The position numbers and the translations under genes were made by a program. A model generated the notes under the pieces. The model was not told the origin of the DNA, ran no database searches, and was given only the letters and a program-made list of their open reading frames with translations. This document shows positions 5,114-33,275 of a stretch of 52,214 bases of DNA, in pieces (the stretch's first letter is position 1; each line of letters begins with the position of its first letter). The stretch is from a virus (lineage: Duplodnaviria; Caudoviricetes). The DNA is taken from positions 1 through 52,214 of the IMG/VR virus record IMGVR_UViG_3300025645_000104. One strand, given 5' to 3'.

Positions 5114-5144
5114 AAAAAAAGAAAGGGAGGTTTTTACACCTCCC
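5114..5144 (-). terminator. Intrinsic terminator after the major capsid gene
   Basis: Minus strand GGGAGG-loop-CCTCCC followed by TTTCTTTTTTT. Confidence 0.85.
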
Positions 5145-5152
5145 AAATCTAT

Positions 5153-6142
5153 TTAGTCAATACCATAGAAAGCAGAAACTAATGCTTCGCCACGTAGTAC
5201 TTTTCCACCATAAACATGGAGTCCTCGTACTATGTCGCCAAAGCTATCAGGATCACGCAATACTTCAGTACTTGTAATCGTCTGAGCAGTAGCTGTAGAT
5301 GACATATGACCAGCAATACATTTACCTGCAGCATTAGTTGTTGCAGCAATGTTGTTTGACTTGTACATATCGAATCCACGTAGTTTTCCACTTGAGACTA
5401 GACCATTTCTAATAGAACCTTGACCTGCGTTATAATCAACAGACAAAAGTTTTGACGATGAACTCGCAAGAACTTCGTAGAAATCAGGTGATGCTAAGAA
5501 CCATCGACCTTCTTCTGGAATGTTCTGTTCGTCAAGCAAACGAGCCATATGTGACAATACGTCAATAGGATCGTGTTCACTTGAAGCAAAACCGATGTCA
5601 AGATTACCAGTTCCATCAAATGTGCCTGCAGCTAAATCAGTAGCGTTGTCAGAACCAAGTATATGGTTAGGACTTGCTGCAGATACACCTGCGAACATAG
5701 TAGCGATGATACCTTCATCATAAGCATCACGAAGAGCATATGCTGCAGATGAACTAGCAACTTCTTTAAAGTTCACGTGAGACATTGAAGTTTCAATATC
5801 ATCAACGATGAATTTAAATGCGTTAGCTGTATCAACTACAAGAGTCAACTCTTGATCAGTTAATTTAGTAGCTGTAACATCTGCACCACGTTCGTATTGG
5901 TACACAGTGATTTCAGGTTCTTTTATAATCTTTACGGAATCTCCGAAAGCGGCAATCTCACCAGCATAATCTGTGTTGGTGATCGCTTCTACAACCGAAG
6001 CCTTTCTAAAGAAGTTGAGAACCTTTTTAGAGTAGACTGCGGGAAGGAAAAACGAATTAGTTTGACCGCTGACGGAGTTCGCAAAGTTAGCGTTAGTATC
6101 AGTACTTGGTTCAAAGAACTGATCTGATTGGTTATAAGCCAT
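5153..6142 (-). CDS. Major capsid protein
   Basis: 329 aa with FLPAVYSKKVLNFFRK...ITNTDYAGEI...GDSVKI and FGDIVRGLHVYG motifs; after the scaffold, followed by a terminator. Confidence 0.9.
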   Translation of the reverse strand: MAYNQSDQFFEPSTDTNANFANSVSGQTNSFFLPAVYSKKVLNFFRKASVVEAITNTDYAGEIAAFGDSVKIIKEPEITVYQYERGADVTATKLTDQELTLVVDTANAFKFIVDDIETSMSHVNFKEVASSSAAYALRDAYDEGIIATMFAGVSAASPNHILGSDNATDLAAGTFDGTGNLDIGFASSEHDPIDVLSHMARLLDEQNIPEEGRWFLASPDFYEVLASSSSKLLSVDYNAGQGSIRNGLVSSGKLRGFDMYKSNNIAATTNAAGKCIAGHMSSTATAQTITSTEVLRDPDSFGDIVRGLHVYGGKVLRGEALVSAFYGID

Positions 6143-6183
6143 TTTACTTCTCCATTATTTTATCAAATTAAAAGTTATTGTTT

Positions 6184-7059
6184 TTATTTAACTACTCTGC
6201 CTTCGTGAATTGCTCGACCAATTTCTTCTTCAAAACGATCAAACTCATCAATAGACATATTAGCTATTTCCCTTTCAGTCCAAATTTTTTCCTGCTTTGG
6301 ATCAACTGAAGTTGTTTTAGTTGAAACCATATCAGCAGCAGATTTTTTGGACTTAGCTGAAGATGGTTTTTTAGCTTTAGAAGAAGTGTCAATGTTTAAA
6401 TCTTTTTTAAATAAATCTAAAGCTCGGCTTGCTAGATCAGCATCATCTGCATTATTATATATCCAATCTTGAATTGACTCAGGTTGTTCTTTAGCCCAAC
6501 TATGAAAATCTTCACTGTTGCGAATATCATCAAAGTCAGGATGTTTAGATAAGAGTCTACTCTCAGCTTCACGTTGTAGTATTTCTATTTCACGTTTTTC
6601 AAGTGATGAAATTTTATCTTCTAAAGATTTTATACTTTCACCGCTTTTCATTTGTGATACAGTTTCTACAACATCGTACACATCTGGATATTGTTTTTTA
6701 AACTCTTCAAGTTCTTCAGCAGTTTTTGGAGCTTTATAGTTTTGTTTGCTAGTATTAGCAGCTTCTTCTATAAGTGTCTTTTCTCTACTTTTAAACTCGT
6801 TAAGTTTTTTATCATAATGAGATTTTAAATCATCGTATCTTTTCTTATAGTCAGGTTTTTTATAAGGTTGATTTTTAGATGCTGCTTCTTTAACAGGAGT
6901 TTCTTCGCTGTTAGTTTCTGTAGCTTCTACTTTATCTTCCTTTGGTTTATTAAAAAACGCACTATCAGCAGATACAAATTCTTTTTCATCACTAGTATGC
7001 CAGTCTTTATTTTTATTATAAGGATTAGCTTTTGGTTCTTCTTTCGCTTGTGTTGCCAT
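6184..7059 (-). CDS. Capsid scaffolding protein
   Basis: Charged coiled coil, DYKKRYDDLK, C-terminal ..AIHEGRV; directly upstream of MCP. Confidence 0.8.
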   Translation of the reverse strand: MATQAKEEPKANPYNKNKDWHTSDEKEFVSADSAFFNKPKEDKVEATETNSEETPVKEAASKNQPYKKPDYKKRYDDLKSHYDKKLNEFKSREKTLIEEAANTSKQNYKAPKTAEELEEFKKQYPDVYDVVETVSQMKSGESIKSLEDKISSLEKREIEILQREAESRLLSKHPDFDDIRNSEDFHSWAKEQPESIQDWIYNNADDADLASRALDLFKKDLNIDTSSKAKKPSSAKSKKSAADMVSTKTTSVDPKQEKIWTEREIANMSIDEFDRFEEEIGRAIHEGRVVK

Positions 7060-7066
7060 CTTCTTA

Positions 7067-7184
7067 CTCCTACTAAGGGCTTTGTTTACAAGGTAGCTCT
7101 ATGTCGACTAGAGGGCTTGTTTGTAAAGGTCGCCTTTCGGTTATTATTGTGATAGAGGGCTTAAACTTCTAAGGTAGCTCTATC
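7067..7184 (-). promoter_or_regulatory. Structured mRNA leader of the scaffold gene
   Basis: Two hairpins with three C(U/G)AC/CC internal loops ending next to the AGGAG RBS. Confidence 0.7.
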
Positions 7185-7185
7185 G

Positions 7186-8178
7186 TTATTGCAAACGTGG
7201 ATTAACAGACAACATACTTCTACGTATTTCTTCGTCTACCAAGTCTTCATCTATAGATTTACCAAATTGGTCTACTTTAGATTCGTCTTGAATTGATCCA
7301 CCCATTGCTACTTGCTTTCTGTTATCACTAACTTCTTCTGCAGAGTCCATCATGTTCTGTAAATTATCAGAACCTATTTCATCTGTAGCTTTTGCTGTAA
7401 TAACAAACTCACCATCCGATAACCTTGCGGGTATCGAATCGGAGACTTCAGAGCCTAAACCTTCAACAGGTCCATCCCCTGAAAATTCTGAAGCTGTGTC
7501 CATAACCTTGTCAAAGATCATGCTTAATCTATCATCAGCTTGTAATGCTTGCATTAGATAAGATTCTTCTTCTTGATCTAATGATTCGTTAATTATAAAA
7601 TCTAAATGGTCTTGTTCCATTTGTTCATCTGGAATCATATCCATTTCTTCTGTAGGCATTGGCATACTTTCTGCAGGCATCATATTTGGCATTTGAGAAT
7701 CCATGCTTCCTCCTTCTTCATAGCCCATTCTAGCTACAACTTCTGGAGCTTCTTTTCTTAATGCTTCAATACCTTTACCACCTTCTTTATAAGACATACG
7801 ATCTTCATCATCGCTTAACATACCACCACTATATTTGTTATCTCTAAGTTTTTCAGTTTCTTTAGTTTTTTTAATAGGATTATATTCTTTATATCCTTGT
7901 TTATTTAACTGCTCAAGCATAGTTTTTAAAACTTTATCTGCTGTAGTATTTGAATCTTTTGCAATACTCTGAGCATCTAGAGTTAATGAGGCATGGTTAT
8001 AGCCTTTACCAAAAACTTTTTCTAAAGTAGTAGGCTCTGCGTTAGCTACGTCTATATATGTTTTAACTACTGAAGCTATTTTTTTATCTACAGTTGTATC
8101 TTCTACTTCTACTTCATTACCTTCTTGATAACCTATTCTGGTTTTATCATCAGTTAACATTCCTTTTTTCTTTTTCAT
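7186..8178 (-). CDS. Head-module protein with SDSIPARLSDGEFV motif and repeated RxxΦxxGG
   Basis: 330 aa acidic ORF between portal and scaffold. Confidence 0.7.
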   Translation of the reverse strand: MKKKKGMLTDDKTRIGYQEGNEVEVEDTTVDKKIASVVKTYIDVANAEPTTLEKVFGKGYNHASLTLDAQSIAKDSNTTADKVLKTMLEQLNKQGYKEYNPIKKTKETEKLRDNKYSGGMLSDDEDRMSYKEGGKGIEALRKEAPEVVARMGYEEGGSMDSQMPNMMPAESMPMPTEEMDMIPDEQMEQDHLDFIINESLDQEEESYLMQALQADDRLSMIFDKVMDTASEFSGDGPVEGLGSEVSDSIPARLSDGEFVITAKATDEIGSDNLQNMMDSAEEVSDNRKQVAMGGSIQDESKVDQFGKSIDEDLVDEEIRRSMLSVNPRLQ

Positions 8179-8402
8179 TATCTGCTCTCTTTAATTACTT
8201 GTTTAACCGATTGGGGGAGCTGAAGCAACCGTTCCAGAGAATTGATCTTCCCCTGACTGCGGAACATTTCCAGTTCCGATGTTGCCACCGCCAGTACCTG
8301 TAACTCCAAGTTCTTGTGGTGATTGAGGTAATCCTCCAGCGGCAGCCATTGTGGGCTGTTGACCAGTGGGTTCAGTCTCTGTGCTTGTTTCTTGTCCAGC
8401 AT
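8178..8402 (-). CDS. Small head-assembly protein overlapping the portal 3' end
   Basis: 74 aa helical ORF (W..LEDYL...MFRSQGKI..L..LL.L); stop coupled to the next ATG. Confidence 0.7.
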   Translation of the reverse strand: MLDKKQAQRLNPLVNSPQWLPLEDYLNHHKNLELQVLAVATSELEMFRSQGKINSLERLLQLPQSVKQVIKESR

Positions 8403-10425
8403 TTTGCATACCTATTATTTGTGCCATGATAGCTGCTTCTTCAGGATCGTTCAGTATTTCATCTGGATCTAAATCTAAGCTATAGGCTAGTTCACTTACA
8501 AGTTTAGAAATCTTAACAAACGGTGCAATAGCAGGACTTTGTGCAGTTTGTAAGAACATAGTCAGTCTTTGACTTCTTACTTCTTTTTGCATCAAGCTAT
8601 TTGTACCTGTAGCTTTAACTTCTAAATCACCTTTAACATCTAAATCACCTTCAAAAAACTGCATGTTCCATTGGAAATATGCTTCACCTAATGGTTTCAA
8701 TAAGAAATCATCTAGATTTTTAACAACTGTTTTAATATTTAAACTAGCTGCGCCTAACAACATTGACATACCTGATGCTGTTCTTGTCATACTTTGAACA
8801 CCTGTTTGTCCGTGACTGTAACTAGGTAGTCCAGTTTGTTCGTCTGCAAGTTGTCTAAACTTGTCAAACATCATCATGTTTTCGTTAGCTGTATTAGGAA
8901 ATTTTAAACCATAGATTGATTGTCCTGCCATTCCTGCTTGTCTACGGAAAACTTTTCCGGGATATATTTCCATTGATTGTCCACCTACTAAAGCAGACTC
9001 GTCTATGTCAAATACAATCGAACCAGAAAGAGCTAAGTTATCTATAGCCATTCTAGCATGTCCGTTCATTATCTGTTGACTATCATCCATGTTTTCAGCA
9101 ATGCCTATACCAAAGAAGTTGTATGGATTTCTTTCGTATGGAAAAGCATGATAAGGAATACGATATGGTGTAAACGGATTAATAACAGCGCGTAATAGTT
9201 TACCACCTGTTACCCATGCATTAACTTGTACTTCGTCTAAATCATCTATTGTGTCGGGTAAGTCTATACCTACTTCTCTTGCGTATTCAGCATCCATGAT
9301 ACCCCAATACTCAAGTACTTCATAGCTAGAATTATATTCTTCTTCTGTTCTAGCGTTATCTTTTAACTGACTTTCAAAACCTTTTTCTTCGTAGTTCGGA
9401 CCCATTTGTAAACATTCACGAATGGCATCTTTGTCAAAGTAAGGCATGTTACGCAGTTGTCTAAGTTGACTACGATTCATCTTGTGACGATGAATAACAT
9501 ATTCACATTCATCCATGTCAGTTGCAGATGGATCAGGATAAAAATCCCAACAACTTACAAACTCTATACGTGGTACTCTAACTTCTAAAGGATTATATTC
9601 TCGTTCACCTTCTTCGTTAGTACTCCACCTACTTAGTTTTTTATTAAAATTAAAAGGTCCTTTAACAATACCTGTACCTAACAACGCAGATTCAAGTAAA
9701 GCATTTCGTATTTCTGACGAACCGTTTGATTCTTCTATTTGATCATGGACAAGTTTTTCTAATCTACGTGCAGCTTCTTGTGCAGGGTTTACTTCTAAAA
9801 CTTTTGGATCTGCGCTGTAGCCTTCTTTTAAAAAACCTTTATCTTCAGCTTGATCTTCTAAACTATCTTCAAAGACACCTTTACCAAAAGTAGCTCCTGC
9901 TTTTAAAGCACGACCATCGCCTTCAAAACCTATATCGTATGGATTTTCTTGAGGCTCGTCTTCCATTCGATTGCCTATGTTATCAGGCATTTCTTCGTCT
10001 GGAAGAGACATTTCAATTCCTTGCATTGGGTTTTGTGTATCTAAATGTGCAGAAGCGTATTCGCCTTCTGGAACTTTAGTTTCACTAATACCAATCGGAA
10101 ACTTACCAGTACCAAACATAACATCCACTAACTGCCCAAAGGCTGCGAGTACTTTTGTTTTAGTAACTTTTACAAAGACTCTAGATTTTTCAGACTCTCT
10201 AAACTTAACAGACTTCTGATATAAACCTCTGTAGTTTTCATATGCACGTAACCATCGTCTTTCATCTGATTGACGAGCATCTTCAGCTTGTTGAAATCTA
10301 TCTTTAATAACACCGACAAGATTTGACTGTTGTGCAAGTTCTAAATCTAGAATTTTTCCAGACTCACCTTCCACATCTTCATAAATGTTGTCAGCGTTTA
10401 AAAATGTATTTTCGTTTTCTGCCAT
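8203..10425 (-). CDS. Portal protein
   Basis: 740 aa after TerL; WDFYPDP and RTASGMSML motifs of P22-like portals. Confidence 0.9.
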   Translation of the reverse strand: MAENENTFLNADNIYEDVEGESGKILDLELAQQSNLVGVIKDRFQQAEDARQSDERRWLRAYENYRGLYQKSVKFRESEKSRVFVKVTKTKVLAAFGQLVDVMFGTGKFPIGISETKVPEGEYASAHLDTQNPMQGIEMSLPDEEMPDNIGNRMEDEPQENPYDIGFEGDGRALKAGATFGKGVFEDSLEDQAEDKGFLKEGYSADPKVLEVNPAQEAARRLEKLVHDQIEESNGSSEIRNALLESALLGTGIVKGPFNFNKKLSRWSTNEEGEREYNPLEVRVPRIEFVSCWDFYPDPSATDMDECEYVIHRHKMNRSQLRQLRNMPYFDKDAIRECLQMGPNYEEKGFESQLKDNARTEEEYNSSYEVLEYWGIMDAEYAREVGIDLPDTIDDLDEVQVNAWVTGGKLLRAVINPFTPYRIPYHAFPYERNPYNFFGIGIAENMDDSQQIMNGHARMAIDNLALSGSIVFDIDESALVGGQSMEIYPGKVFRRQAGMAGQSIYGLKFPNTANENMMMFDKFRQLADEQTGLPSYSHGQTGVQSMTRTASGMSMLLGAASLNIKTVVKNLDDFLLKPLGEAYFQWNMQFFEGDLDVKGDLEVKATGTNSLMQKEVRSQRLTMFLQTAQSPAIAPFVKISKLVSELAYSLDLDPDEILNDPEEAAIMAQIIGMQNAGQETSTETEPTGQQPTMAAAGGLPQSPQELGVTGTGGGNIGTGNVPQSGEDQFSGTVASAPPIG

Positions 10426-10427
10426 GT

Positions 10428-12110
10428 TTAATACCCAAAGGTTGTATCAGAAGGTGCGTATATTTCTTGTTTTAACTCTCGTATCCGATCATATGGGCTT
10501 GCTATTCTAGGTCTGCTCATAATCATATAACGTAATGCGTCATATGCGTGATCCGAAGCGTGAGTATCTACATCCTCTGGATTTGTTTTAGACAACGGTA
10601 TACTTTGTAATTCTCTTATCAAGTTAGGACACGTATTGAATATTTGTAACTTAGGTCTACCGTTCTCTTTAATTTTTAAAAATTCATGTATTTGAATTTT
10701 ACCTTGTACTCTGTTCTTATCTGCTCTTCTTAACTTGTGTCCTTCTTTCAAAAGAGCTTCACCGACAGTCGGTCCTGTAGATCCTGTCTTAGCCCATGCA
10801 GCACCGTCTAAGACACCTGAAACTGCAAAAGGATCTTCAAGTTCCATATTAGTTATTATACTGCCTAATTCCTCACCTGTCAAGCCTTTTCTGTATAATT
10901 CTCGATAAATTATTAAAGTTCCGTCATTAATATCTACAATTCCCCATAAACAACAGCTTTCAGCGGCATATCCGTAGTCAATTCCTTTAACTCTTTCCCA
11001 CCCAATAGGTAGCTCAAACGGAGGAATTACATGGACTTGCGTATCAAATTCTACAAAAGCAGCTCCTTCTGCAACATCCCAATTACCTTCTAACAACTGT
11101 CTACGTTGAATAGGTGGTAAAGACTTAAGCATTTGCTCATAGATACCATCTTCCGCAAGATAAGGATTATCAGCTAGTTTTGCGGGAATAAACTTTCTAG
11201 ATAATCCATCGTTACCTGTAAAACCTGTGTTATGTTCTGAAGGTTCTATGTATCTTTTCTTTACCCAATGCGAACCTACACCGCCCGGATTTGCTGTGCA
11301 GCGTAGGTATGTTTGTATTTCAGGATCAGTTGTACGAAGTCGGGAAGCTAAATAGTTCCAACTAAACTCTGTAGGTAGGTGGGTTATTTCGTCAAAGCCT
11401 ATCCAAGAATAAGCTTGCCCTTGATAACGATATACATCTGCGTCACGTTCAAGGAAGCCAAACTCTACTTTTGCACCGCTTGGAAAGTTCCATAGCTTTT
11501 CTACTTCTCGGAACTTAGCTCCTTGAAAAGCTAACGGATAAAGTTCACGAGATTTATCTATCATCTCGCGTAACTCTGGCATAGAGCGTCTAAGTATTAG
11601 TGCGCGGTGCGCTTTCTTATGCGCATAGCGTAACGGATCAATCAACATTGCGTATGATTTACCACCACCCGCAGCACCGCCATACAGAACATCTTTCTCA
11701 CCTGCAGCAAGAAAGTCTGTTTGTGGTCCTTCGTTAGGATGAAATAAGACATTTTGTTCTGGCAGTATGTCTTGTACTGCTTTAGGAAGCTCGTCTAGCT
11801 CTGAAGGCGAAACAACGCGATCCGTCTTATCGGAAAGCTTATTTATTGTATTGGTTGTGGCTTTGTAAGACTTTCTAGCATTGTTTAGCTTTTCTTCAAG
11901 CTTCTTTATGTTTTTCTTTTTACGTGCTATTTTACGATGAACAGCATACTTGGCTTTTTGTGAAGAGGATACGTTGTAACTGCTACCTGATCCTAATGGT
12001 CTGCCTGCTTTTAAACGTGGTGTACCGTCTTTCTTACGGACAAAGTTACCTTCGCTATCTTGCAAGTAACGATCTGGGTTCAGTTCCCAGTCTTTCGCTT
12101 CTTTTTCCAT
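10428..12110 (-). CDS. terL: Terminase large subunit
   Basis: Walker A GGAAGGGKS, Walker B IGFDE, TANPGG, nuclease GIDYG and DHAYDALRY. Confidence 0.95.
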   Translation of the reverse strand: MEKEAKDWELNPDRYLQDSEGNFVRKKDGTPRLKAGRPLGSGSSYNVSSSQKAKYAVHRKIARKKKNIKKLEEKLNNARKSYKATTNTINKLSDKTDRVVSPSELDELPKAVQDILPEQNVLFHPNEGPQTDFLAAGEKDVLYGGAAGGGKSYAMLIDPLRYAHKKAHRALILRRSMPELREMIDKSRELYPLAFQGAKFREVEKLWNFPSGAKVEFGFLERDADVYRYQGQAYSWIGFDEITHLPTEFSWNYLASRLRTTDPEIQTYLRCTANPGGVGSHWVKKRYIEPSEHNTGFTGNDGLSRKFIPAKLADNPYLAEDGIYEQMLKSLPPIQRRQLLEGNWDVAEGAAFVEFDTQVHVIPPFELPIGWERVKGIDYGYAAESCCLWGIVDINDGTLIIYRELYRKGLTGEELGSIITNMELEDPFAVSGVLDGAAWAKTGSTGPTVGEALLKEGHKLRRADKNRVQGKIQIHEFLKIKENGRPKLQIFNTCPNLIRELQSIPLSKTNPEDVDTHASDHAYDALRYMIMSRPRIASPYDRIRELKQEIYAPSDTTFGY

Positions 12111-17909: not shown

Positions 17910-18208
17910 ACAAGAGTGATTTAATGAAAGTGTTCTTTACTTTCACAGATGATAACGCTGAGTTAATGTTTAACTATGAAGATGTGAACGGAAAAGAAAC
18001 AACAGATAGAAAAGTTAAACCTTTCAAGATAGAGTATCAAGAAGATGATGATGAAGTATTAATTACAGGACTATGTGCTGTTGCTACTATGCCTTCTGGA
18101 ATTATTGATTGGCAACAAAGAAAGTTTTATTTAAATAATATGTCTTGCATTAGAGTGTATAAAGAGATACGCTATGCAGAGATGTTAAATTCAAAAGCTT
18201 GGAGTTAA
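17906..18208 (+). CDS. Stand-alone WYL-like domain protein
   Basis: FNYEDVNGKETTDRKVKPFKI...LITGLC...QRKFYLNNM follows the WYL pattern. Confidence 0.55.
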   Translation: MNKSDLMKVFFTFTDDNAELMFNYEDVNGKETTDRKVKPFKIEYQEDDDEVLITGLCAVATMPSGIIDWQQRKFYLNNMSCIRVYKEIRYAEMLNSKAWS

Positions 18209-18210
18209 GT

Positions 18211-18759
18211 ATGAACATATTTTATTTTTATGATAGCCCTGTTAAATCAGCAGAGGCACAACCTGATAAGATGTTAGTGAAGATGCCATTGGAGACAGCG
18301 CAGATGTTATGTACTGCACACAGAGAACTAGATGGTGACGAGTATGCAGACAAGGTAGGTTTGTACAAACGAGCATACTGGAATCATCCGTGTACAATAT
18401 GGGCTAGGGAATGTAATGAAAATTACTCGTGGTTATATGCTCATTTTCTAGCACTAGGAATGGAATACACTTACCGATATGGTAAGGAACATGCAAGTAT
18501 TATTAAGTTAGCTAAACCTTTAATGCAGTTCCCTAAAAATATAAAGAGTGGTCAGATGACAACAGTTGCACAAGCTATGCCAGATCAATACAAGAATGAC
18601 GATCCTATCAAAGCATATCGTGACTACTGTATCAATGAGAAGCACTATGCTAAGTGGGAGAAAGGTAGAGACAAACCTAAGTGGTGGGTGAAGGTGAAGG
18701 AAGAGCTTGATGAAGCGCAAGCAATAGATGATTACTACATGTCAATAGCGGAGGTGTGA
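18211..18759 (+). CDS. Pyrimidine-dimer DNA glycosylase / endonuclease V-like protein
   Basis: MNIF...DKMLVKMPLETAQMLCTAH...NHPCTIWA...AMPDQYK..DPIKAYRDY family signature. Confidence 0.75.
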   Translation: MNIFYFYDSPVKSAEAQPDKMLVKMPLETAQMLCTAHRELDGDEYADKVGLYKRAYWNHPCTIWARECNENYSWLYAHFLALGMEYTYRYGKEHASIIKLAKPLMQFPKNIKSGQMTTVAQAMPDQYKNDDPIKAYRDYCINEKHYAKWEKGRDKPKWWVKVKEELDEAQAIDDYYMSIAEV

Positions 18760-25415: not shown

Positions 25416-25896
25416 TATAACTAAACATGATATACAACAGGCAGAGATACTTGCTAAAGAAATGGGAGAATTAAAAAATTCTATAACAAAAGGACAGGGA
25501 AATATACATGGATTTTTAGGAGAAATAATTGTAGCTAAATTTTTAGATATAAAAATATCTAACACTTATGATTACGATATGATATTTAAGGATATAAAAA
25601 TAGATGTTAAAACTAAACGAGTAACTACTCCTCCTAGAGATTATTATGAGTGTTCAGTTGCTGCTCTTAATACTAAGCAACGCTGTAATATATATGTATT
25701 TACACGCATTTTAAAAGACAGGACTCAGGGATGGATATTAGGATATATAAATAAAGAAGACTATTTTAAAAAAGCTACCTTCCTTAAAAAAGGAGAAGTA
25801 GATCCTTCTAATAATTGGAAAGTTTCAACAGACTGTTATAACCTTCCAATAAAAGAATTAAATAACATAGAGGAGCTGTTAAGTGAAACACACTAA
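25402..25896 (+). CDS. PD-(D/E)XK nuclease-like protein
   Basis: GFLGE...YDYD...IDVKT; GTG start after GGAGG. Confidence 0.6.
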   Translation: MKHTDITKHDIQQAEILAKEMGELKNSITKGQGNIHGFLGEIIVAKFLDIKISNTYDYDMIFKDIKIDVKTKRVTTPPRDYYECSVAALNTKQRCNIYVFTRILKDRTQGWILGYINKEDYFKKATFLKKGEVDPSNNWKVSTDCYNLPIKELNNIEELLSETH

Positions 25897-26416
25897 TAAA
25901 GATTGTATTAAATGCGGAGTAAAATTAACAGACGATAATTGGTATATCGCTGCAAAAAAAATAAAAATGTATCAATGTTCTTCGTGTTATCAAAAAATCG
26001 CACTTAAGTTTTCAAAAAAAACAAATCCAGAAAGAATGTATGTTAACGGTAAGTATGTACCAAAAGACCATCCTTTATATAAAGCAGGCAGATATAAAAC
26101 TTTTGAAGGTGCAGCCTTCTCATCTTTATCTGGCTATGAAAAATCTAACGAAGGTTATGTATATGTTATAACTAATCCTTGTTGGAAAGGTTGGGTTAAA
26201 GTTGGTATGGCTATTGATGCAGAGGACAGATGTAAACAGTATCAAACCTCTAGTCCTTTTAGAGACTACGCATTAAGGTTTAAGAAATACTTTGACGATA
26301 GACGAAGTGCTGAACAACAAGCACATAAGAAAATAAAAAATATTTGTAAAGATAACAATGGAGAATGGTTTAAAGTTTCTATATCAGAAGCTAAAGAAAT
26401 CATACAGTCAATATGA
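25883..26416 (+). CDS. GIY-YIG (T5orf172-like) nuclease with N-terminal Zn finger
   Basis: CxxC...CxxC; GYVYVI...VKVG...R...QTSSP...GEWF. Confidence 0.8.
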   Translation: MKHTNKDCIKCGVKLTDDNWYIAAKKIKMYQCSSCYQKIALKFSKKTNPERMYVNGKYVPKDHPLYKAGRYKTFEGAAFSSLSGYEKSNEGYVYVITNPCWKGWVKVGMAIDAEDRCKQYQTSSPFRDYALRFKKYFDDRRSAEQQAHKKIKNICKDNNGEWFKVSISEAKEIIQSI

Positions 26417-28541: not shown

Positions 28542-30473
28542 ATGACACAAACAAACAACGCAGAGTTACCCACAAACTATCAACAATTTATACACCTTAG
28601 TAGATATGCAAGGTGGAACGAAGAACATCAACGTAGAGAAACATGGAGCGAAACTGTTTCTAGATATTTTGATTTCTTTGAAAATCATTTAATGAAGAAG
28701 CATAACTTAGACATCATTACATGGAACGGAACTAGAAAATATTTAGAAGAAGCTGTACTTAACTTAGATGTTATGCCAAGTATGCGAGCATTGATGTCAG
28801 CAGGTAAAGCATTAGAGCAAGATAACGTTGCAGGTTTTAACTGTAGCTATGTAGCTGTCGATAACGTCAGAGCCTTTGATGAAACGCTATACATACTTAT
28901 GTGTGGCACAGGTGTTGGCTTTAGTGTAGAGCGTCAGTATGTTAATCAACTTCCTGATCTACCTGAAGAACTATTCAATACAGATACAGTTATTAAGGTA
29001 GCTGATTCTAAGATTGGGTGGGCAAAATCCTACAAAGAACTACTCTCGTTACTATACGCAGGGCAGATTCCCACATGGGATGTGTCTAACATCAGACCTT
29101 ATGGTGCTAGACTTAAAACATTTGGTGGTCGTGCTAGTGGTCCTGCTCCACTTGAAGAGTTATTTAATTTTACTATCAACATATTCCGTGATGCTATTGC
29201 AAAAGGACAGCGTAAGCTTGTGTCCATAGACTGCCATGATTTGATGTGTAAGGTCGCAGAAGTCGTAGTCGTAGGGGGAGTAAGGCGAAGTGCTTTAATC
29301 TCTCTCAGCAACCTCTCAGACAATCGTATGCGCAATGCCAAGTCAGGTGCTTGGTGGGAAGACAATCAGCAGAGAGCGTTATCTAATAACTCAGTAGCAT
29401 ACACAGATGCTGCAGAAACTGGTGCGTTTATGCGTGAGTGGTTGTCTTTGTATGAGTCTAAAAGTGGTGAACGTGGTATGTTTAATCGTCAAGCTGCAGA
29501 AAAACAGGCAGCTAAGAACGGTAGACGAGAAGATTATGAACACTTTGGTTGTAATCCTTGTAGTGAGATTATTCTACGTAACAAACAGTTCTGTAATCTT
29601 ACTGAGGTTGTGGTTAGACCTGAAGATACAACAGCTACTCTTAAAGATAAAGTAGAACTTGCTACCATACTTGGTACGTTTCAAGCTACCTTAACAAACT
29701 TTAGATACTTGACAAGTAAATGGAAACAAAACACAGAAGAAGAATCGTTACTTGGAGTATCACTTACAGGTATCATGGACAATAACGATATGGTAACTGG
29801 AAATAATATAGATTTAGAATATCTTAAAAACTATTCAGTATCTGTTAATAAGTTATGGGCTAAGAAGCTAGGTATTCCCCACTCCGCAGCAATAACCTGT
29901 GTGAAACCTAGTGGAACAGTTAGTCAACTGGTCGATAGTGCTTCAGGTATTCACACTAGACATAGCCCATACTACCTACGTACTGTCAGAGCAGATAAGA
30001 AAGATCCGTTAGCTAAACTAATGGTAGACGCAGGTGTATATCACGAAGATGATCTTACTAAGCCAGAGCATACCTATGTGTTTTACTTCCCCATGAAGAG
30101 TCCTAAAGGCTCTCTCACAAGGAAGGACTTCACAGCTATACAACACTTAGACCTTTGGAAAGAGTATCAGGATAACTGGTGTGAGCATAAACCATCTGTT
30201 ACTATCTCAGTTAAAGAGAACGAGTGGTTAGACGTAGGTGCTTGGGTATATAAAAACTTTGATGATGTATCAGGTATCTCGTTCTTACCATACTCAGATC
30301 ACTCATACAAGCAAGCTCCTTATCAAGAGATTACTTATAACGAGTATCGTAAGTGGTTAAAGAAAACTACAGACGTAGTAGATTGGTCTAAGATAACAGA
30401 GTACGAAACAGAAGATAACACTGAGAACACTAAAGAGCTTGCGTGTAGCGCAGGTACTTGTGAGATTATTTAA
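28542..30473 (+). CDS. nrdJ: Class II (adenosylcobalamin-dependent) ribonucleotide reductase
   Basis: FNC, LMCGTGVGFS, NPCSEI, FCNL, TCVKPSGT, WCEHKPS, C-terminal CSAGTC; no beta-subunit gene nearby. Confidence 0.9.
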   Translation: MTQTNNAELPTNYQQFIHLSRYARWNEEHQRRETWSETVSRYFDFFENHLMKKHNLDIITWNGTRKYLEEAVLNLDVMPSMRALMSAGKALEQDNVAGFNCSYVAVDNVRAFDETLYILMCGTGVGFSVERQYVNQLPDLPEELFNTDTVIKVADSKIGWAKSYKELLSLLYAGQIPTWDVSNIRPYGARLKTFGGRASGPAPLEELFNFTINIFRDAIAKGQRKLVSIDCHDLMCKVAEVVVVGGVRRSALISLSNLSDNRMRNAKSGAWWEDNQQRALSNNSVAYTDAAETGAFMREWLSLYESKSGERGMFNRQAAEKQAAKNGRREDYEHFGCNPCSEIILRNKQFCNLTEVVVRPEDTTATLKDKVELATILGTFQATLTNFRYLTSKWKQNTEEESLLGVSLTGIMDNNDMVTGNNIDLEYLKNYSVSVNKLWAKKLGIPHSAAITCVKPSGTVSQLVDSASGIHTRHSPYYLRTVRADKKDPLAKLMVDAGVYHEDDLTKPEHTYVFYFPMKSPKGSLTRKDFTAIQHLDLWKEYQDNWCEHKPSVTISVKENEWLDVGAWVYKNFDDVSGISFLPYSDHSYKQAPYQEITYNEYRKWLKKTTDVVDWSKITEYETEDNTENTKELACSAGTCEII

Positions 30474-30702: not shown

Positions 30703-31809
30703 TTAACTTCCTTGTTTAATATTAATTACAGAGGAGCTGCCTCCGTTAGTAGTAACTCTGTTTACTTTACCTTCTTGTTCAATAGTTATACTGTATGAAC
30801 CATCTTTAGATACGTTCATCTCTAGTGTATCTTCTATAGATCTTAAGAACTTTAAGTTTGTGTCAGTAACAAAGGTACTAATCTGGGTGTCACCATCATA
30901 GCCTACTGCAGTACCTTTTACTCCATCTGCAGACAGAGCTTTGTTTGCTTTACCTAGCTCGTCAACTTCTTGTATGACATCAAGTAGATCTTCAAGGAAG
31001 TTACCTGCTAGGTAGTCTATGTCTAGCTCTGTATATTCTAAATCATCTTCAGCTAAATCATCCTGTTCTAGCTCGTCAAACTCTAAGAAGTCTACGTCTA
31101 ATAGATTATCTACAGCAGCAACTGATTCGTCTGTTTGAATCTCTTTAGTCTCTGGAGGATTTACAATGAGCATATTGTCAATCATATCTAGTGTTAGGTC
31201 TAGTATAACTGAAGGAGTTGGTGCAGTTTCAAAGTTGTATACTGTAGTAGCTTCATAGGCTTTGGTAAGGACTACCTGTCCTAGTGCTGTGTCTACAGTT
31301 ATCTCACCACTAGAGTTACCAAACTCATCAGGGAGTAGAATCACTAAAGTTTCTCCAGTTTCTTTAACAGTCAGTGTGAAATCTGTGCCTCTAATTCCAA
31401 TGGTAGCCGCATTGGTACGGATAGTAATATTATCTTTAGGTATACGTCTTTTAGTTTTAGAACTTATGAACCTGCCAGTACCTTTCACAAACGACAAAGC
31501 CATTGTAGATTTAGCTGGATCAGGATCAAACACAAACTTATCTATAGTTACATTGCTGTGTTCTGTTAGACGTATCGTTGTATCATCTCTAAACGTAACA
31601 CCCATTCTGCCTTGCGCAGTTTCTAGTTTGTCCATAGAGTTAAGCGAGAAATCAATCTCGCTCTCATAAGGTTTATCTCTTACTACTCTGGTGTTTCCGT
31701 TTAACTGTGTAATGCTTCCAATATCAACATCCAACGCTTGTGCCTTGATCGTCTTGGTTAATGCAAACTGTACCGTTAGAACCAGTAGAAGTAACTTTAA
31801 GCCAGTCAT
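30703..31809 (-). CDS. Secreted FecR-domain protein
   Basis: Signal peptide MTGLKLLLLVLTVQFA...AQA; DKLETAQGR...FRDDTTIRL...ATIGIRGTDF FecR signature; acidic linker. Confidence 0.8.
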   Translation of the reverse strand: MTGLKLLLLVLTVQFALTKTIKAQALDVDIGSITQLNGNTRVVRDKPYESEIDFSLNSMDKLETAQGRMGVTFRDDTTIRLTEHSNVTIDKFVFDPDPAKSTMALSFVKGTGRFISSKTKRRIPKDNITIRTNAATIGIRGTDFTLTVKETGETLVILLPDEFGNSSGEITVDTALGQVVLTKAYEATTVYNFETAPTPSVILDLTLDMIDNMLIVNPPETKEIQTDESVAAVDNLLDVDFLEFDELEQDDLAEDDLEYTELDIDYLAGNFLEDLLDVIQEVDELGKANKALSADGVKGTAVGYDGDTQISTFVTDTNLKFLRSIEDTLEMNVSKDGSYSITIEQEGKVNRVTTNGGSSSVINIKQGS

Positions 31810-32431
31810 TATCTTGTGTGCTTTGCTGATCCACATCGAAGGCTCTTGAGCTTCCTGTGTGTGTAAGGTGAAAATACCCCTGCGCATAACCGTCTCCATC
31901 ATAGTTTACTGTGTTACTGTCACCATCTATATTCATATAGTTAGTTGCTGAGTCTACATCAATGTCAGCGTTAATAGTATTACTAGAACCCTGTACAGTC
32001 CAATCTATATCTGCACCACTTGCTAAAGCTGCAGTAGCTAAATCAAGTGTGAAGGTGTTGGTACTGCCTGTCACTTGGACATTAACGTTAGAACCATCTG
32101 CGCCAAACGCATTGGTTGGATCCATCTTAGATGTAAACGTGTTAGTGTCACCATCAAAGTTAAAGTAACCAGTGTATGTATCTGCGTACATATCCCCTAA
32201 GAACTTGTTAGTATCTCCTATTTGATTTATATCTAATGTCATTGAGGTTCCATCAAGATCTAATGCAGTCATTGAACCTGCTACTGCAGTAAGACCACCT
32301 ATAATGTTACCACTACCTAATTGCTCAAGATCTATGTTAGCTGTAGCTCCTACTTGATCCACAAAGATCTCGTTGTCTGAAGCTAAAGTGCTAAACGATA
32401 CTAACACCAACAAGCTAATTAATTTATTCAT
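31724..32431 (-). CDS. Curlin-like secreted beta-repeat protein
   Basis: Sec signal peptide; repeated (Q/x)xGxxN units; adjacent to csgG. Confidence 0.65.
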   Translation of the reverse strand: MNKLISLLVLVSFSTLASDNEIFVDQVGATANIDLEQLGSGNIIGGLTAVAGSMTALDLDGTSMTLDINQIGDTNKFLGDMYADTYTGYFNFDGDTNTFTSKMDPTNAFGADGSNVNVQVTGSTNTFTLDLATAALASGADIDWTVQGSSNTINADIDVDSATNYMNIDGDSNTVNYDGDGYAQGYFHLTHTGSSRAFDVDQQSTQDNDWLKVTSTGSNGTVCINQDDQGTSVGC

Positions 32432-33275
32432 ATTTCCAATACCCCCTAGTAATTCCTACTTTTATTATTTCTAATACACCTGCCTCTATTGCTTTCTGCA
32501 GAGCTATAGCACTACTTTCGTTTGCTGCAATACCTCCTTCTGCTTCAATCAATTTTGTTCCTTCAGATATAAATCTAAATATATCCTGTGAAAGACTTGC
32601 CGATAACACACTCTTAGTTACCAATGTTTCAATCAATACTTCGCCTGTCGATACAGACACAAGACGTAATGAAATCGTAATCAAGTCTTCTCTATATTGT
32701 TTTGCAGATCCTAAACCTAACGCTCTTGCTCCTGTTCCTCCAGAATAAACATTAGCATCATAGCTTAGTACACCTCCTTGTATTATCAATCCTGCCAGTA
32801 ATAACGGTTTTACCGTGCTATCTTCGTCAAATGAATCTCTTGTAGATCTTATGAGCTGACGTTCTTTTGTCAAGCTGTCAAGTCCTACACGTTCTGCAAC
32901 TTGGAAAAACTTCCCATCTGCTGCGTGTTTTAAAGCCCTGATAAGAAATGCTTCAGGAGCTTGAGTAATTGCTGTACTAAATAAAGCAAACTGTCCGTTG
33001 CTTTTGCGCTGTCCTGTTTGATCTCTAAAGCTATTAGGATAGATAGCTATAACAGGCTTACGTTTTGCAGCAGGTATATTCTTTAGTTCTTCTGATTGTA
33101 AATCCATTATAGAAGAACTTTTAATTACTACATTAGGTATACCACTACCTTCTAATATATTACGTGAGGCACAACTAGAAAGTAAAGTCACCGATAGGCA
33201 CAGTAATATTAGTTGTACCACCTGTTTCGTCTGTAACTGTAAGCGTGATCGTATCTGCTTCAACAACGTATTCAA
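32424..33275 (-). CDS. csgG: CsgG-family outer-membrane secretion lipoprotein
   Basis: Lipobox LSSC; FRDQTGQRK, FSTAITQ, ERVGLDSLTKERQLIR, GGVLSYD. Confidence 0.9.
   Translation of the reverse strand: MNTLLKQIRSRLQLQTKQVVQLILLCLSVTLLSSCASRNILEGSGIPNVVIKSSSIMDLQSEELKNIPAAKRKPVIAIYPNSFRDQTGQRKSNGQFALFSTAITQAPEAFLIRALKHAADGKFFQVAERVGLDSLTKERQLIRSTRDSFDEDSTVKPLLLAGLIIQGGVLSYDANVYSGGTGARALGLGSAKQYREDLITISLRLVSVSTGEVLIETLVTKSVLSASLSQDIFRFISEGTKLIEAEGGIAANESSAIALQKAIEAGVLEIIKVGITRGYWKYE

Follow-up and report, generated by a model that had tools for sequence, protein, structure and literature searches.

In the coat hairpins of MS2 and PP7, at the T4 RegA and gp32 sites and in ribosomal protein leaders, a protein of the same operon binds a small structured site at or next to the ribosome-binding site and feeds back on translation. 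C-loops occur in rRNA helices, with one instance in the thrS operator, and they change helical twist; crossing non-Watson-Crick pairs, joined in triples to the pairs on either side, define them. For phage P22, papers from 1985 by Casjens and Adams and by Wyckoff and Casjens reportedly belong to this field. According to a passage of a preprint, the N-terminus of the P22 scaffolding protein is 'implicated in translational autoregulation' (bioRxiv 10.1101/2022.12.13.520362). This agrees with a first-pass annotation of the DNA studied here, which had stated that P22 scaffold represses its own translation and that loops of the C-loop type serve as protein-binding motifs. The second statement is also in print: in the section concerned, the C-loop is described as an RNA–protein binding site, asymmetric in shape, in which two cytosines each make several pairs and an adenine is left exposed (PMC2952876). 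In the sections of the sources that treat it, the short strand of the C-loop has 0–2 nt, with one rRNA instance carrying an insertion on each strand (PMC2952876, PMC4551918, PMC3273805), and the canonical long strand has 3 nt, as in GCAAU*AC and ACAAU*AU (PMC4551918).

The locus described here shares with P22 the gene class and position (portal, scaffold, P22-type coat) and the proposed logic, in which free scaffold would limit its own translation. P22 gene 8 lacks a leader comparable to that of our phage, the spacer between the portal and scaffold genes (genes 1 and 8) being 13 nt, so that the likeness is functional and not one of homology. In addition, no protein similarity was detected by Foldseek against the PDB, and an RNA site for P22 was not found in the passages of the literature searched. 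With the MS2/PP7, T4 and ribosomal protein operators the leader has in common a small structured site close to the ribosome-binding site; unlike them, it repeats its module one to three times, reshuffles the layout by clade and has no match in Rfam.

The late operon and the fold of the leader

The window, that is, the whole stretch of 52,214 bases analysed, is the complete record of a marine phage. Its nearest named relatives are the HMO-2011-type pelagiphages HTVC115P, 033P, 103P and 104P, with about 70% DNA identity in parts of the head region. SAR11, SAR116 and Roseobacter are the hosts of phages of the HMO-2011 type and their kin, which the abstract of an article on them describes as dominant and broadly distributed among marine viruses (PMC9038755); the text of that article contains none of the terms 'promoter', 'intergenic' and 'RNA polymerase', and its single 'scaffold' refers to an Fe–S cluster assembly gene. 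The genome carries a CsgG-like gene of the curli secretion channel family (32424-33275, minus strand; Pfam E = 3.8e-43) and, about 520 bases away on the same strand, a FecR-domain gene (30703-31902; E = 2.9e-10), which are unusual cargo for a podovirus. The plus strand encodes a DenV-like pyrimidine-dimer glycosylase (18199-18759), a T5orf172/MUG113-domain protein (25883-26416) and a ribonucleotide reductase with a B12-type insertion domain (28542-30473).

The leader is located on the minus strand within the late operon. The features of this region are, in window coordinates and in the order of transcription:

10428-12110, minus strand: large terminase gene, late operon
8203-10425, minus strand: portal gene, late operon
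7186-8178, minus strand: gene of 330 aa, no function assigned; its stop codon (7188-7186) lies 2 nt before hairpin 1
7151-7184, minus strand: hairpin 1 with module 1, G7178[CUAC]C7173 / G7160[CC]C7157; apical loop GAAGUU at 7169-7164
7136-7150, minus strand: A-rich linker joining hairpins 1 and 2; it contains the CCGAAAGG word, whose conserved CC is at 7140-7139
7075-7135, minus strand: hairpin 2, with modules 2 and 3 nested head-to-head and a variable 4x4 spacer loop between them
7133-7128 with 7080-7077, minus strand: module 2 of hairpin 2, G7133[CGAC]C7128 with G7080[CC]C7077
7116-7113 with 7097-7092, minus strand: module 3 of hairpin 2, G7116[CC]C7113 with G7097[CUAC]C7092
7102-7108, minus strand: apical loop of hairpin 2, self-complementary GUCGAC (7108-7103), then A
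7067-7071, minus strand: Shine-Dalgarno AGGAG, 3 nt past the base of hairpin 2
7059-7057, minus strand: AUG of the putative scaffold gene
6184-7059, minus strand: gene of 291 aa, the putative scaffolding protein served by the leader, between the portal and the P22-type major head protein; PHROG 13678 (no function)
5153-6142, minus strand: major head protein, P22-type coat (PHROG 267, E = 1.2e-68), directly downstream of the scaffold gene
5125-5144, minus strand: terminator-like GC hairpin GGGAGGUGUAAAAACCUCCC with a U-run, 9 nt past the stop codon of the major head gene

The 291-aa gene is probably the scaffold gene, judged from its place just before the P22-type coat gene and from a structure model with long helices. 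The AlphaFold (AF2) model has a mean pLDDT of 73, predicted long helices at residues 71-104 and 125-172, and a disordered N-terminus. The attribution of the leader to a scaffold gene, as made in the first-pass annotation, is in line with the gene order and the predicted helices; family support for it is absent, since the PHROG has no function, a Pfam search gave nothing above the cut-off, and Foldseek against the PDB returned no match for the model at E <= 0.001. Residues 11-21 (window 7029-6997, minus strand) form the word ANPYN..K.WH within the otherwise disordered N-terminal region, and this word is kept across the pelagiphage clades and absent from the HMO-2011-type scaffolds.

The spacer before the putative scaffold gene is 126 nt long (7185-7060) on the mRNA strand, here the minus strand. 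Hairpin 1 reads G7184-AUAGAG, [C7177 U A C7174], CUUA, the GAAGUU loop, UAAG, [C7159 C7158] and CUCUAUC7151. The 5' half of hairpin 2 is composed of A7135-GG, [C7132 G A C7129], CUUU, ACAA, ACAAG, [C7115 C7114] and CUCUA, followed by the GUCGACA loop (7108-7102), and the 3' half of UAGAG, [C7096 U A C7093], CUUGU, AAAC, AAAG, [C7079 C7078] and CUU7075. The module common to both hairpins is a 4x2 internal loop, 5'-G[CNAC]C-3' opposite 5'-G[CC]C-3', closed by G-C pairs on both sides and present in three copies in the window. Thus all elements of the architecture first described, namely two hairpins with three 4x2 loops, two of them head-to-head, ending just before the AGGAG, can be read on the minus strand. 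The two strands of hairpin 2 are direct repeats, 73% identical over 22 nt, and the duplex therefore has dyad symmetry, like the sites of homodimers.

Single-sequence support for this fold is modest. RNAfold returns the same structure for 7190-7060 on the mRNA strand at -24.2 kcal/mol (z = -1.99; 7 of 200 shuffles as good), compared with z = -0.90 and 39 of 200 for the opposite strand. The exact words TAGAGCTACCTT and AAGCCCTCTA are each found twice in the 52,214-base genome, only in the leader, and with mismatches allowed their match counts are at chance level.

The module resembles a C-loop in being asymmetric and enclosed by Watson-Crick helices, with 2 nt in the short strand and, in the window, two cytosines and an adenine in the long strand; such flanks and a short strand within the 0–2 nt range are found in all three modules of the window. 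It differs in having 4 + 2 nt, a size which matches only the atypical loop of H. marismortui 23S 958-963/1005-1008. By size and key bases, the leader loop is compatible with a C-loop variant.

Conservation of the structure and spread of the module

The scaffold protein search gave 80 IMG/VR loci with 58–100% identity, of at least 597 pattern matches, and from these loci an alignment of 53 distinct leaders, the window included, was built. The proposed structure is well supported by it: 94.7% of the 1,476 pair cells hold standard pairs, versus 34.8–46.6% when the 3' partners are slid by 1–3 columns. Changes on both sides are seen in 11 of the 28 pairs, and the covariation score was reached by none of 500 shuffles. 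In hairpin 1, helices 1 and 2 are paired in 100% and 99.1% of the cells, and 7 of their 11 pairs are compensatory. RNAalifold, given the alignment alone, returned the same helices. For hairpin 2, the nested fold is preferred because leader pair 82-106 stays GC (43 leaders) or AU (10 leaders) and because it alone explains three covarying pairs of the apical helix. An arrangement as two tandem local hairpins was rejected, as 10 sequences would set the invariant C70 against A82.

The loops are as constant as the stems are variable. Fourteen loop bases are identical in all 53 leaders (C21, A23, C24, C39, C66, A68, C69, C83, C84, C102, A104, C105, C119 and C120), and the closing pairs of the modules are likewise invariant, while the stems change. 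The GGA of the Shine-Dalgarno (G128, G129, A130 in the window row) is invariant in the 53 leaders, and its final G is nearly so. The base pair of hairpin 1 is G-U in 11 of 53 leaders, and G-U pairs close the foot of hairpin 2 in 38 of 53; such pairs fit the mRNA strand only and would be mismatches on the other. In addition, at least three different upstream gene ends precede the same leader among the relatives, which indicates that the leader belongs to, and travels with, the downstream gene. Covariation and loop conservation in related scaffold leaders, on whose presence the first-pass reading had been made to depend, were both found, and the leader is almost certainly a real, selected RNA structure.

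The apical loop of hairpin 2 follows a different pattern. Within the window's clade (L002-L081), 22 of 24 distinct hairpin 2 apical loops contain a palindrome of at least 6 nt. Four cores containing G and C recur, GUCGAC, GUGCAC, UGCGCA and CUGCAG, and one of the 22 is an AAAUUU run, so the sequence changes and self-complementarity is kept. The HIV-1 DIS is a kissing-loop dimerisation hairpin, and hairpin 2 resembles this type in having a 6-nt self-complementary word followed by A (GUGCAC, GUCGAC); unlike a general feature of the leader family, the palindrome is limited to the window's clade and is absent from the other clades. By its sequence, the loop would allow loop–loop dimerisation. The palindromes may also have a neutral origin, by palindrome-perfecting mutation or through relatedness of the leaders.

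The wider distribution of the module was assessed with a strict descriptor, G[CNAC]Y with R[CM]C, requiring at least 2 outer and at least 3 inner pairs. It was applied to 190 distinct scaffold leaders, obtained from 308 loci with an assignable start by removing 17 whose upstream sequence was too short and merging leaders of the same sequence. The descriptor matches 182 of the 190 leaders, versus none of their reverse complements and, on average, 3.3 shuffled leaders (maximum 8), counts which relatedness inflates. In the coding regions of the scaffold genes, used as a control, it matches 43 of 190, all from two clade-specific sites. The site of the HTVC033P clade has lost its pairing in a sister subclade, and these modules within the reading frame are read as inherited chance; the site of the HTVC103P clade is read in the same way, with less support.

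These results bear on a DNA-level function as operator, promoter or inverted-repeat cruciform. The region does contain inverted repeats, with a palindromic hexamer at the centre of hairpin 2. Nevertheless, G-U pairs are preserved on just one of the strands, a palindrome at the DNA level is interrupted by the CNAC/CC asymmetry, no reverse complement matches the descriptor, and the palindromic core varies between relatives. Moreover, promoter-like sites near the leader are at chance level (12 versus 10.2 expected). A DNA element is therefore extremely improbable.

Layout and copy number depend on the clade, with one to three modules in tandem, nested or long-range arrangement. HTVC115P, with 44% scaffold protein identity, has two tandem modules, and phage contigs binned in metagenome-assembled genomes (MAGs) have two or three. 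HMO-2011, roseophage CRP-1, Rhizobium phage RHph_N3_13, Sinorhizobium phage phiM6 and one freshwater phage each possess a single hairpin with a nested head-to-head pair, followed immediately by the Shine-Dalgarno, which is the same design as hairpin 2 of the window. An alignment of 50 distinct leaders of this HMO type has 92.2% of its cells paired versus 18–44% when slid, with 6 of 16 pairs compensatory and C-N-A-C invariant.

In the HTVC103P clade, a module-free hairpin precedes two module hairpins, and the outer stem of the second runs into AAAGGAGG. The module-free hairpin (L082, L166-L245) is the first one past the upstream stop codon; it is conserved as UAUAGAG-AAAGGUAA-CUCUAU, and its stem covaries, for example to CAGAG/CUCUG. 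The next hairpin of this clade carries GNRA tetraloops (GAAA, GCAA, GGAA), which are limited to this one hairpin in this one clade.

In the HTVC033P clade, a local module of about 3 + 5 bp immediately precedes the Shine-Dalgarno, and the local modules of L284 and L315 are similarly short. In addition, 57 of its 61 distinct leaders contain a long-range module, with 17 different complementary inner stems. The long strand, GU-G[CCAC]C-UGAUAC, is located about 30–130 nt upstream of the scaffold start (L083, L086-L156) within the upstream coding sequence, and the short strand lies past the stop codon; 8–118 nt are enclosed, the stop codon included. Ribosomes finishing the upstream gene must therefore melt this module.

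C-N-A-C is invariant in both alignments (53 and 50 leaders), with one nucleotide more than the 3-nt long strand of the canonical C-loop, and distant relatives have A or U as the first loop base. The inner long strand of phiM6 is AUGAC, with U as the first loop base in one copy. Vibrio phage CHOED and Aeromonas phage 1233 each contain one similar hairpin with a degenerate loop, [AUAC]/[AC] or [ACAC]/[CC], which begins with A. The rule of two cytosines is therefore not universal. Pseudoalteromonas phage Slicky01 has no leader, its spacer being 25 nt only. The small loop module is the conserved unit of the family, whose stems covary and whose copy number and layout are free, and the leader family is common to hundreds of related phages from the ocean, from soil and from fish pathogens. 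Seventeen loci (L300-L316) are phage contigs in MAGs labelled Sphingobacteriales, Acidiferrobacteraceae, Maricaulis, archaea, Saccharibacteria and others; the labels are mutually inconsistent, and this placement is most likely a binning artefact. One of these loci comes from a Pelagibacteraceae single-cell assembly, which fits a SAR11 host.

Large motif surveys are said to have deposited their motifs in Rfam. The Rfam search proposed in the first-pass annotation matched no family: with Rfam 15 and permissive filters, the best matches overlapping the leader in window 6000-8500 had E values of about 7, far below the gathering scores, and the loci of eight relatives (20,753 bases) gave no match at E <= 1. 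In the literature texts searched, the motif was not found described. We conclude that the leader represents a new, uncatalogued and probably cis-acting RNA family of a known general kind.

The distribution also touches on the possibility that the module is a site for a host factor (a ribosomal protein, an abundant RNA-binding protein or RNA polymerase) and mimics a host RNA. The put antitermination RNAs of HK022 act on RNA polymerase. A host-dependent site would suit the distribution of the element: phages of four alphaproteobacterial orders carry the canonical module, those of Vibrio and Aeromonas differ from it in the first loop base, and the one of Pseudoalteromonas lacks a leader. In addition, Pfam detected no RNA-binding domain in 35 of 75 candidate ORFs, a set that includes the scaffold and its neighbours, the other 40 being mostly small or tail genes. 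On the other hand, Rfam gave no match, ribosomal-protein leaders included, the motif tracks one phage gene, and the site lies beside a Shine-Dalgarno deep in an operon and not after a promoter. We regard a host ligand as distinctly unlikely.

Position beside the ribosome-binding site and candidate functions

In every clade, the last module ends 13–26 nt before the AUG and 0–10 nt from the Shine-Dalgarno, and the ribosome-binding site that it adjoins is always that of the gene preceding the P22-type coat gene. No further stem-supported module was found in the 52-kb window: a loose descriptor gave 9 matches versus 8.5 expected from shuffles, with G...C closings in the leader matches only, and a pattern match at 31385-31407 has no supporting stem. 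Five other complete genomes contain 16 pattern matches; the three with stems of at least 4 Watson-Crick pairs are all in scaffold leaders. HMO-2011 (W04, GU557055.1) has a match at 702-737 on the plus strand, outside the scaffold leader; two of the five pairs in its inner stem are G-U, and it is probably due to chance. Taken with its position, this gene specificity points to an element that probably acts in cis on scaffold expression.

Contigs from RNA libraries cover the leader in four libraries of three studies; they are contigs only, for which DNA carry-over is possible, and their ends correspond to strain variation. The high summed contig depth over 7026-7132 stems from relatives that share the conserved leader.

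The Shine-Dalgarno itself is of average predicted accessibility, with a mean unpaired probability of 0.44 versus 0.51 for all leader bases (187 leaders), which suggests that the free RNA neither hides nor displays it. In the RNAalifold structure, the linker CC (from the CCGAAAGG word) pairs with the Shine-Dalgarno GG, as CG in 49 leaders and UG in 4. The linker might sequester the Shine-Dalgarno in this way; the pairing amounts to just 2 bp with one-sided change, and the accessibility is average. Alternatively, the linker CC could form a local CC-GAAA-GG mini-hairpin.

A structural element working free of protein might insulate or present the ribosome-binding site, or serve as a standby platform for the 30S subunit, with the loop in an architectural role. 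The Shine-Dalgarno next to the leader is always unpaired or half-paired, and the very high demand for scaffold would make an enhancer sensible. Moreover, C-loops are listed among architectural motifs in the relevant part of PMC4551918. Against this, one to three modules in tandem, nested or long-range arrangement better fit separate binding sites than a fixed architecture, and an insulator has no need for an invariant loop sequence. A conserved tetraloop–receptor pairing was not seen, and a tertiary fold of that kind was rejected, as GNRA loops occur only in the one HTVC103P-clade hairpin. Such a protein-free role is quite unlikely.

As a signal for RNA processing or stability, the hairpins would be targets of a host endoribonuclease such as RNase III or RNase E, or would protect the ends of a processed scaffold–coat message, and could uncouple the abundance of that message from the upstream genes. 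In T7, RNase III sites uncouple message abundance in this way, and our leader, like the T7 hairpins, consists of intergenic hairpins with an internal loop in a podovirus operon. The hairpin at 5144-5125, the sole terminator-like site on the minus strand, with none in the leader, would end a scaffold-plus-coat transcription unit; the P22 record has a putative stem-loop annotated at the same place, after the coat gene. The leader is intergenic within a long late operon, so the two signals would bracket the scaffold–coat unit. The internal loops and the dyad symmetry of hairpin 2 suit a dimeric nuclease, and promoter-like sites nearby are not in excess. However, RNase III needs roughly two helical turns. 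Hairpin 2 of the window is long enough, whereas single-module hairpins elsewhere have about 8–11 bp and the minimal forms, such as the HTVC033P local module of about 3 + 5 bp and its counterparts in L284 and L315, fall below this requirement. In further contrast to the T7 hairpins, loop sequence and polarity are invariant and the element is tied to one gene; protection alone would need neither these invariant features nor a fixed distance to the Shine-Dalgarno instead of the upstream stop codon. We consider processing or stability unlikely, at roughly one chance in five.

We favour the reading of the leader as a modular, protein-binding translational operator beside the ribosome-binding site, with a probability of about 0.5. 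It is suggested by analogy with the operators described above. Moreover, the small loop is invariant and the stems, copy number and layout vary freely, yet the element is strictly linked to one gene and keeps a fixed place next to its ribosome-binding site; this combination favours separate protein-docking sites. In this operator, a protein, probably an oligomer, would dock on the modules. Bound to the last of them, it would lie within the 30S footprint; because that module is only 0–10 nt from the Shine-Dalgarno, its occupancy would set the rate of 30S initiation on the scaffold message. Occupancy would in this way determine how often 30S subunits start on the scaffold message and, through this, the scaffold-to-coat ratio.

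The likeliest ligand would be unassembled scaffold protein, with feedback as reported for P22. The scaffold protein is the most economical candidate, proposed by analogy and tentatively. The first-pass annotation had suggested a multivalent operator for free scaffold or coat protein that balances head assembly, a reading which is plausible and supported in part. Weighing against the operator are the helical scaffold model with no fold match and the fact that P22, the sole precedent, has no comparable leader. The same holds for the negative Pfam result on RNA-binding domains in the 35 of 75 ORFs, the average accessibility of the Shine-Dalgarno, the changed first loop base of distant relatives, the descriptor matches in scaffold coding regions and the additional stem-bearing match in HMO-2011.

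A further idea goes beyond translational control. The module might be an RNA tag that recruits head-assembly proteins onto their own mRNA, which would then be a meter or nucleation platform for procapsid assembly. Scaffold oligomers or scaffold–coat complexes would dock on the dyad-symmetric module pair, and in the window's clade two leaders would also be joined via the palindromic apical loop. We hold this to be very improbable; if true, it would mean that RNA organises a step in DNA phage assembly, and does so widely among the podoviruses that are most abundant in the ocean.

The leader defines a new small RNA module, in which 10 conserved bases are maintained and copy number and layout evolve freely. 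The same element is present in tractable systems, namely Sinorhizobium phage phiM6, Rhizobium phage RHph_N3_13 and cultured roseophages. It also provides an annotation marker for the scaffold gene in thousands of viral contigs in which that gene is labelled 'hypothetical'. Our analysis offers a concrete candidate RNA site for the long-standing idea that scaffold is metered post-transcriptionally.
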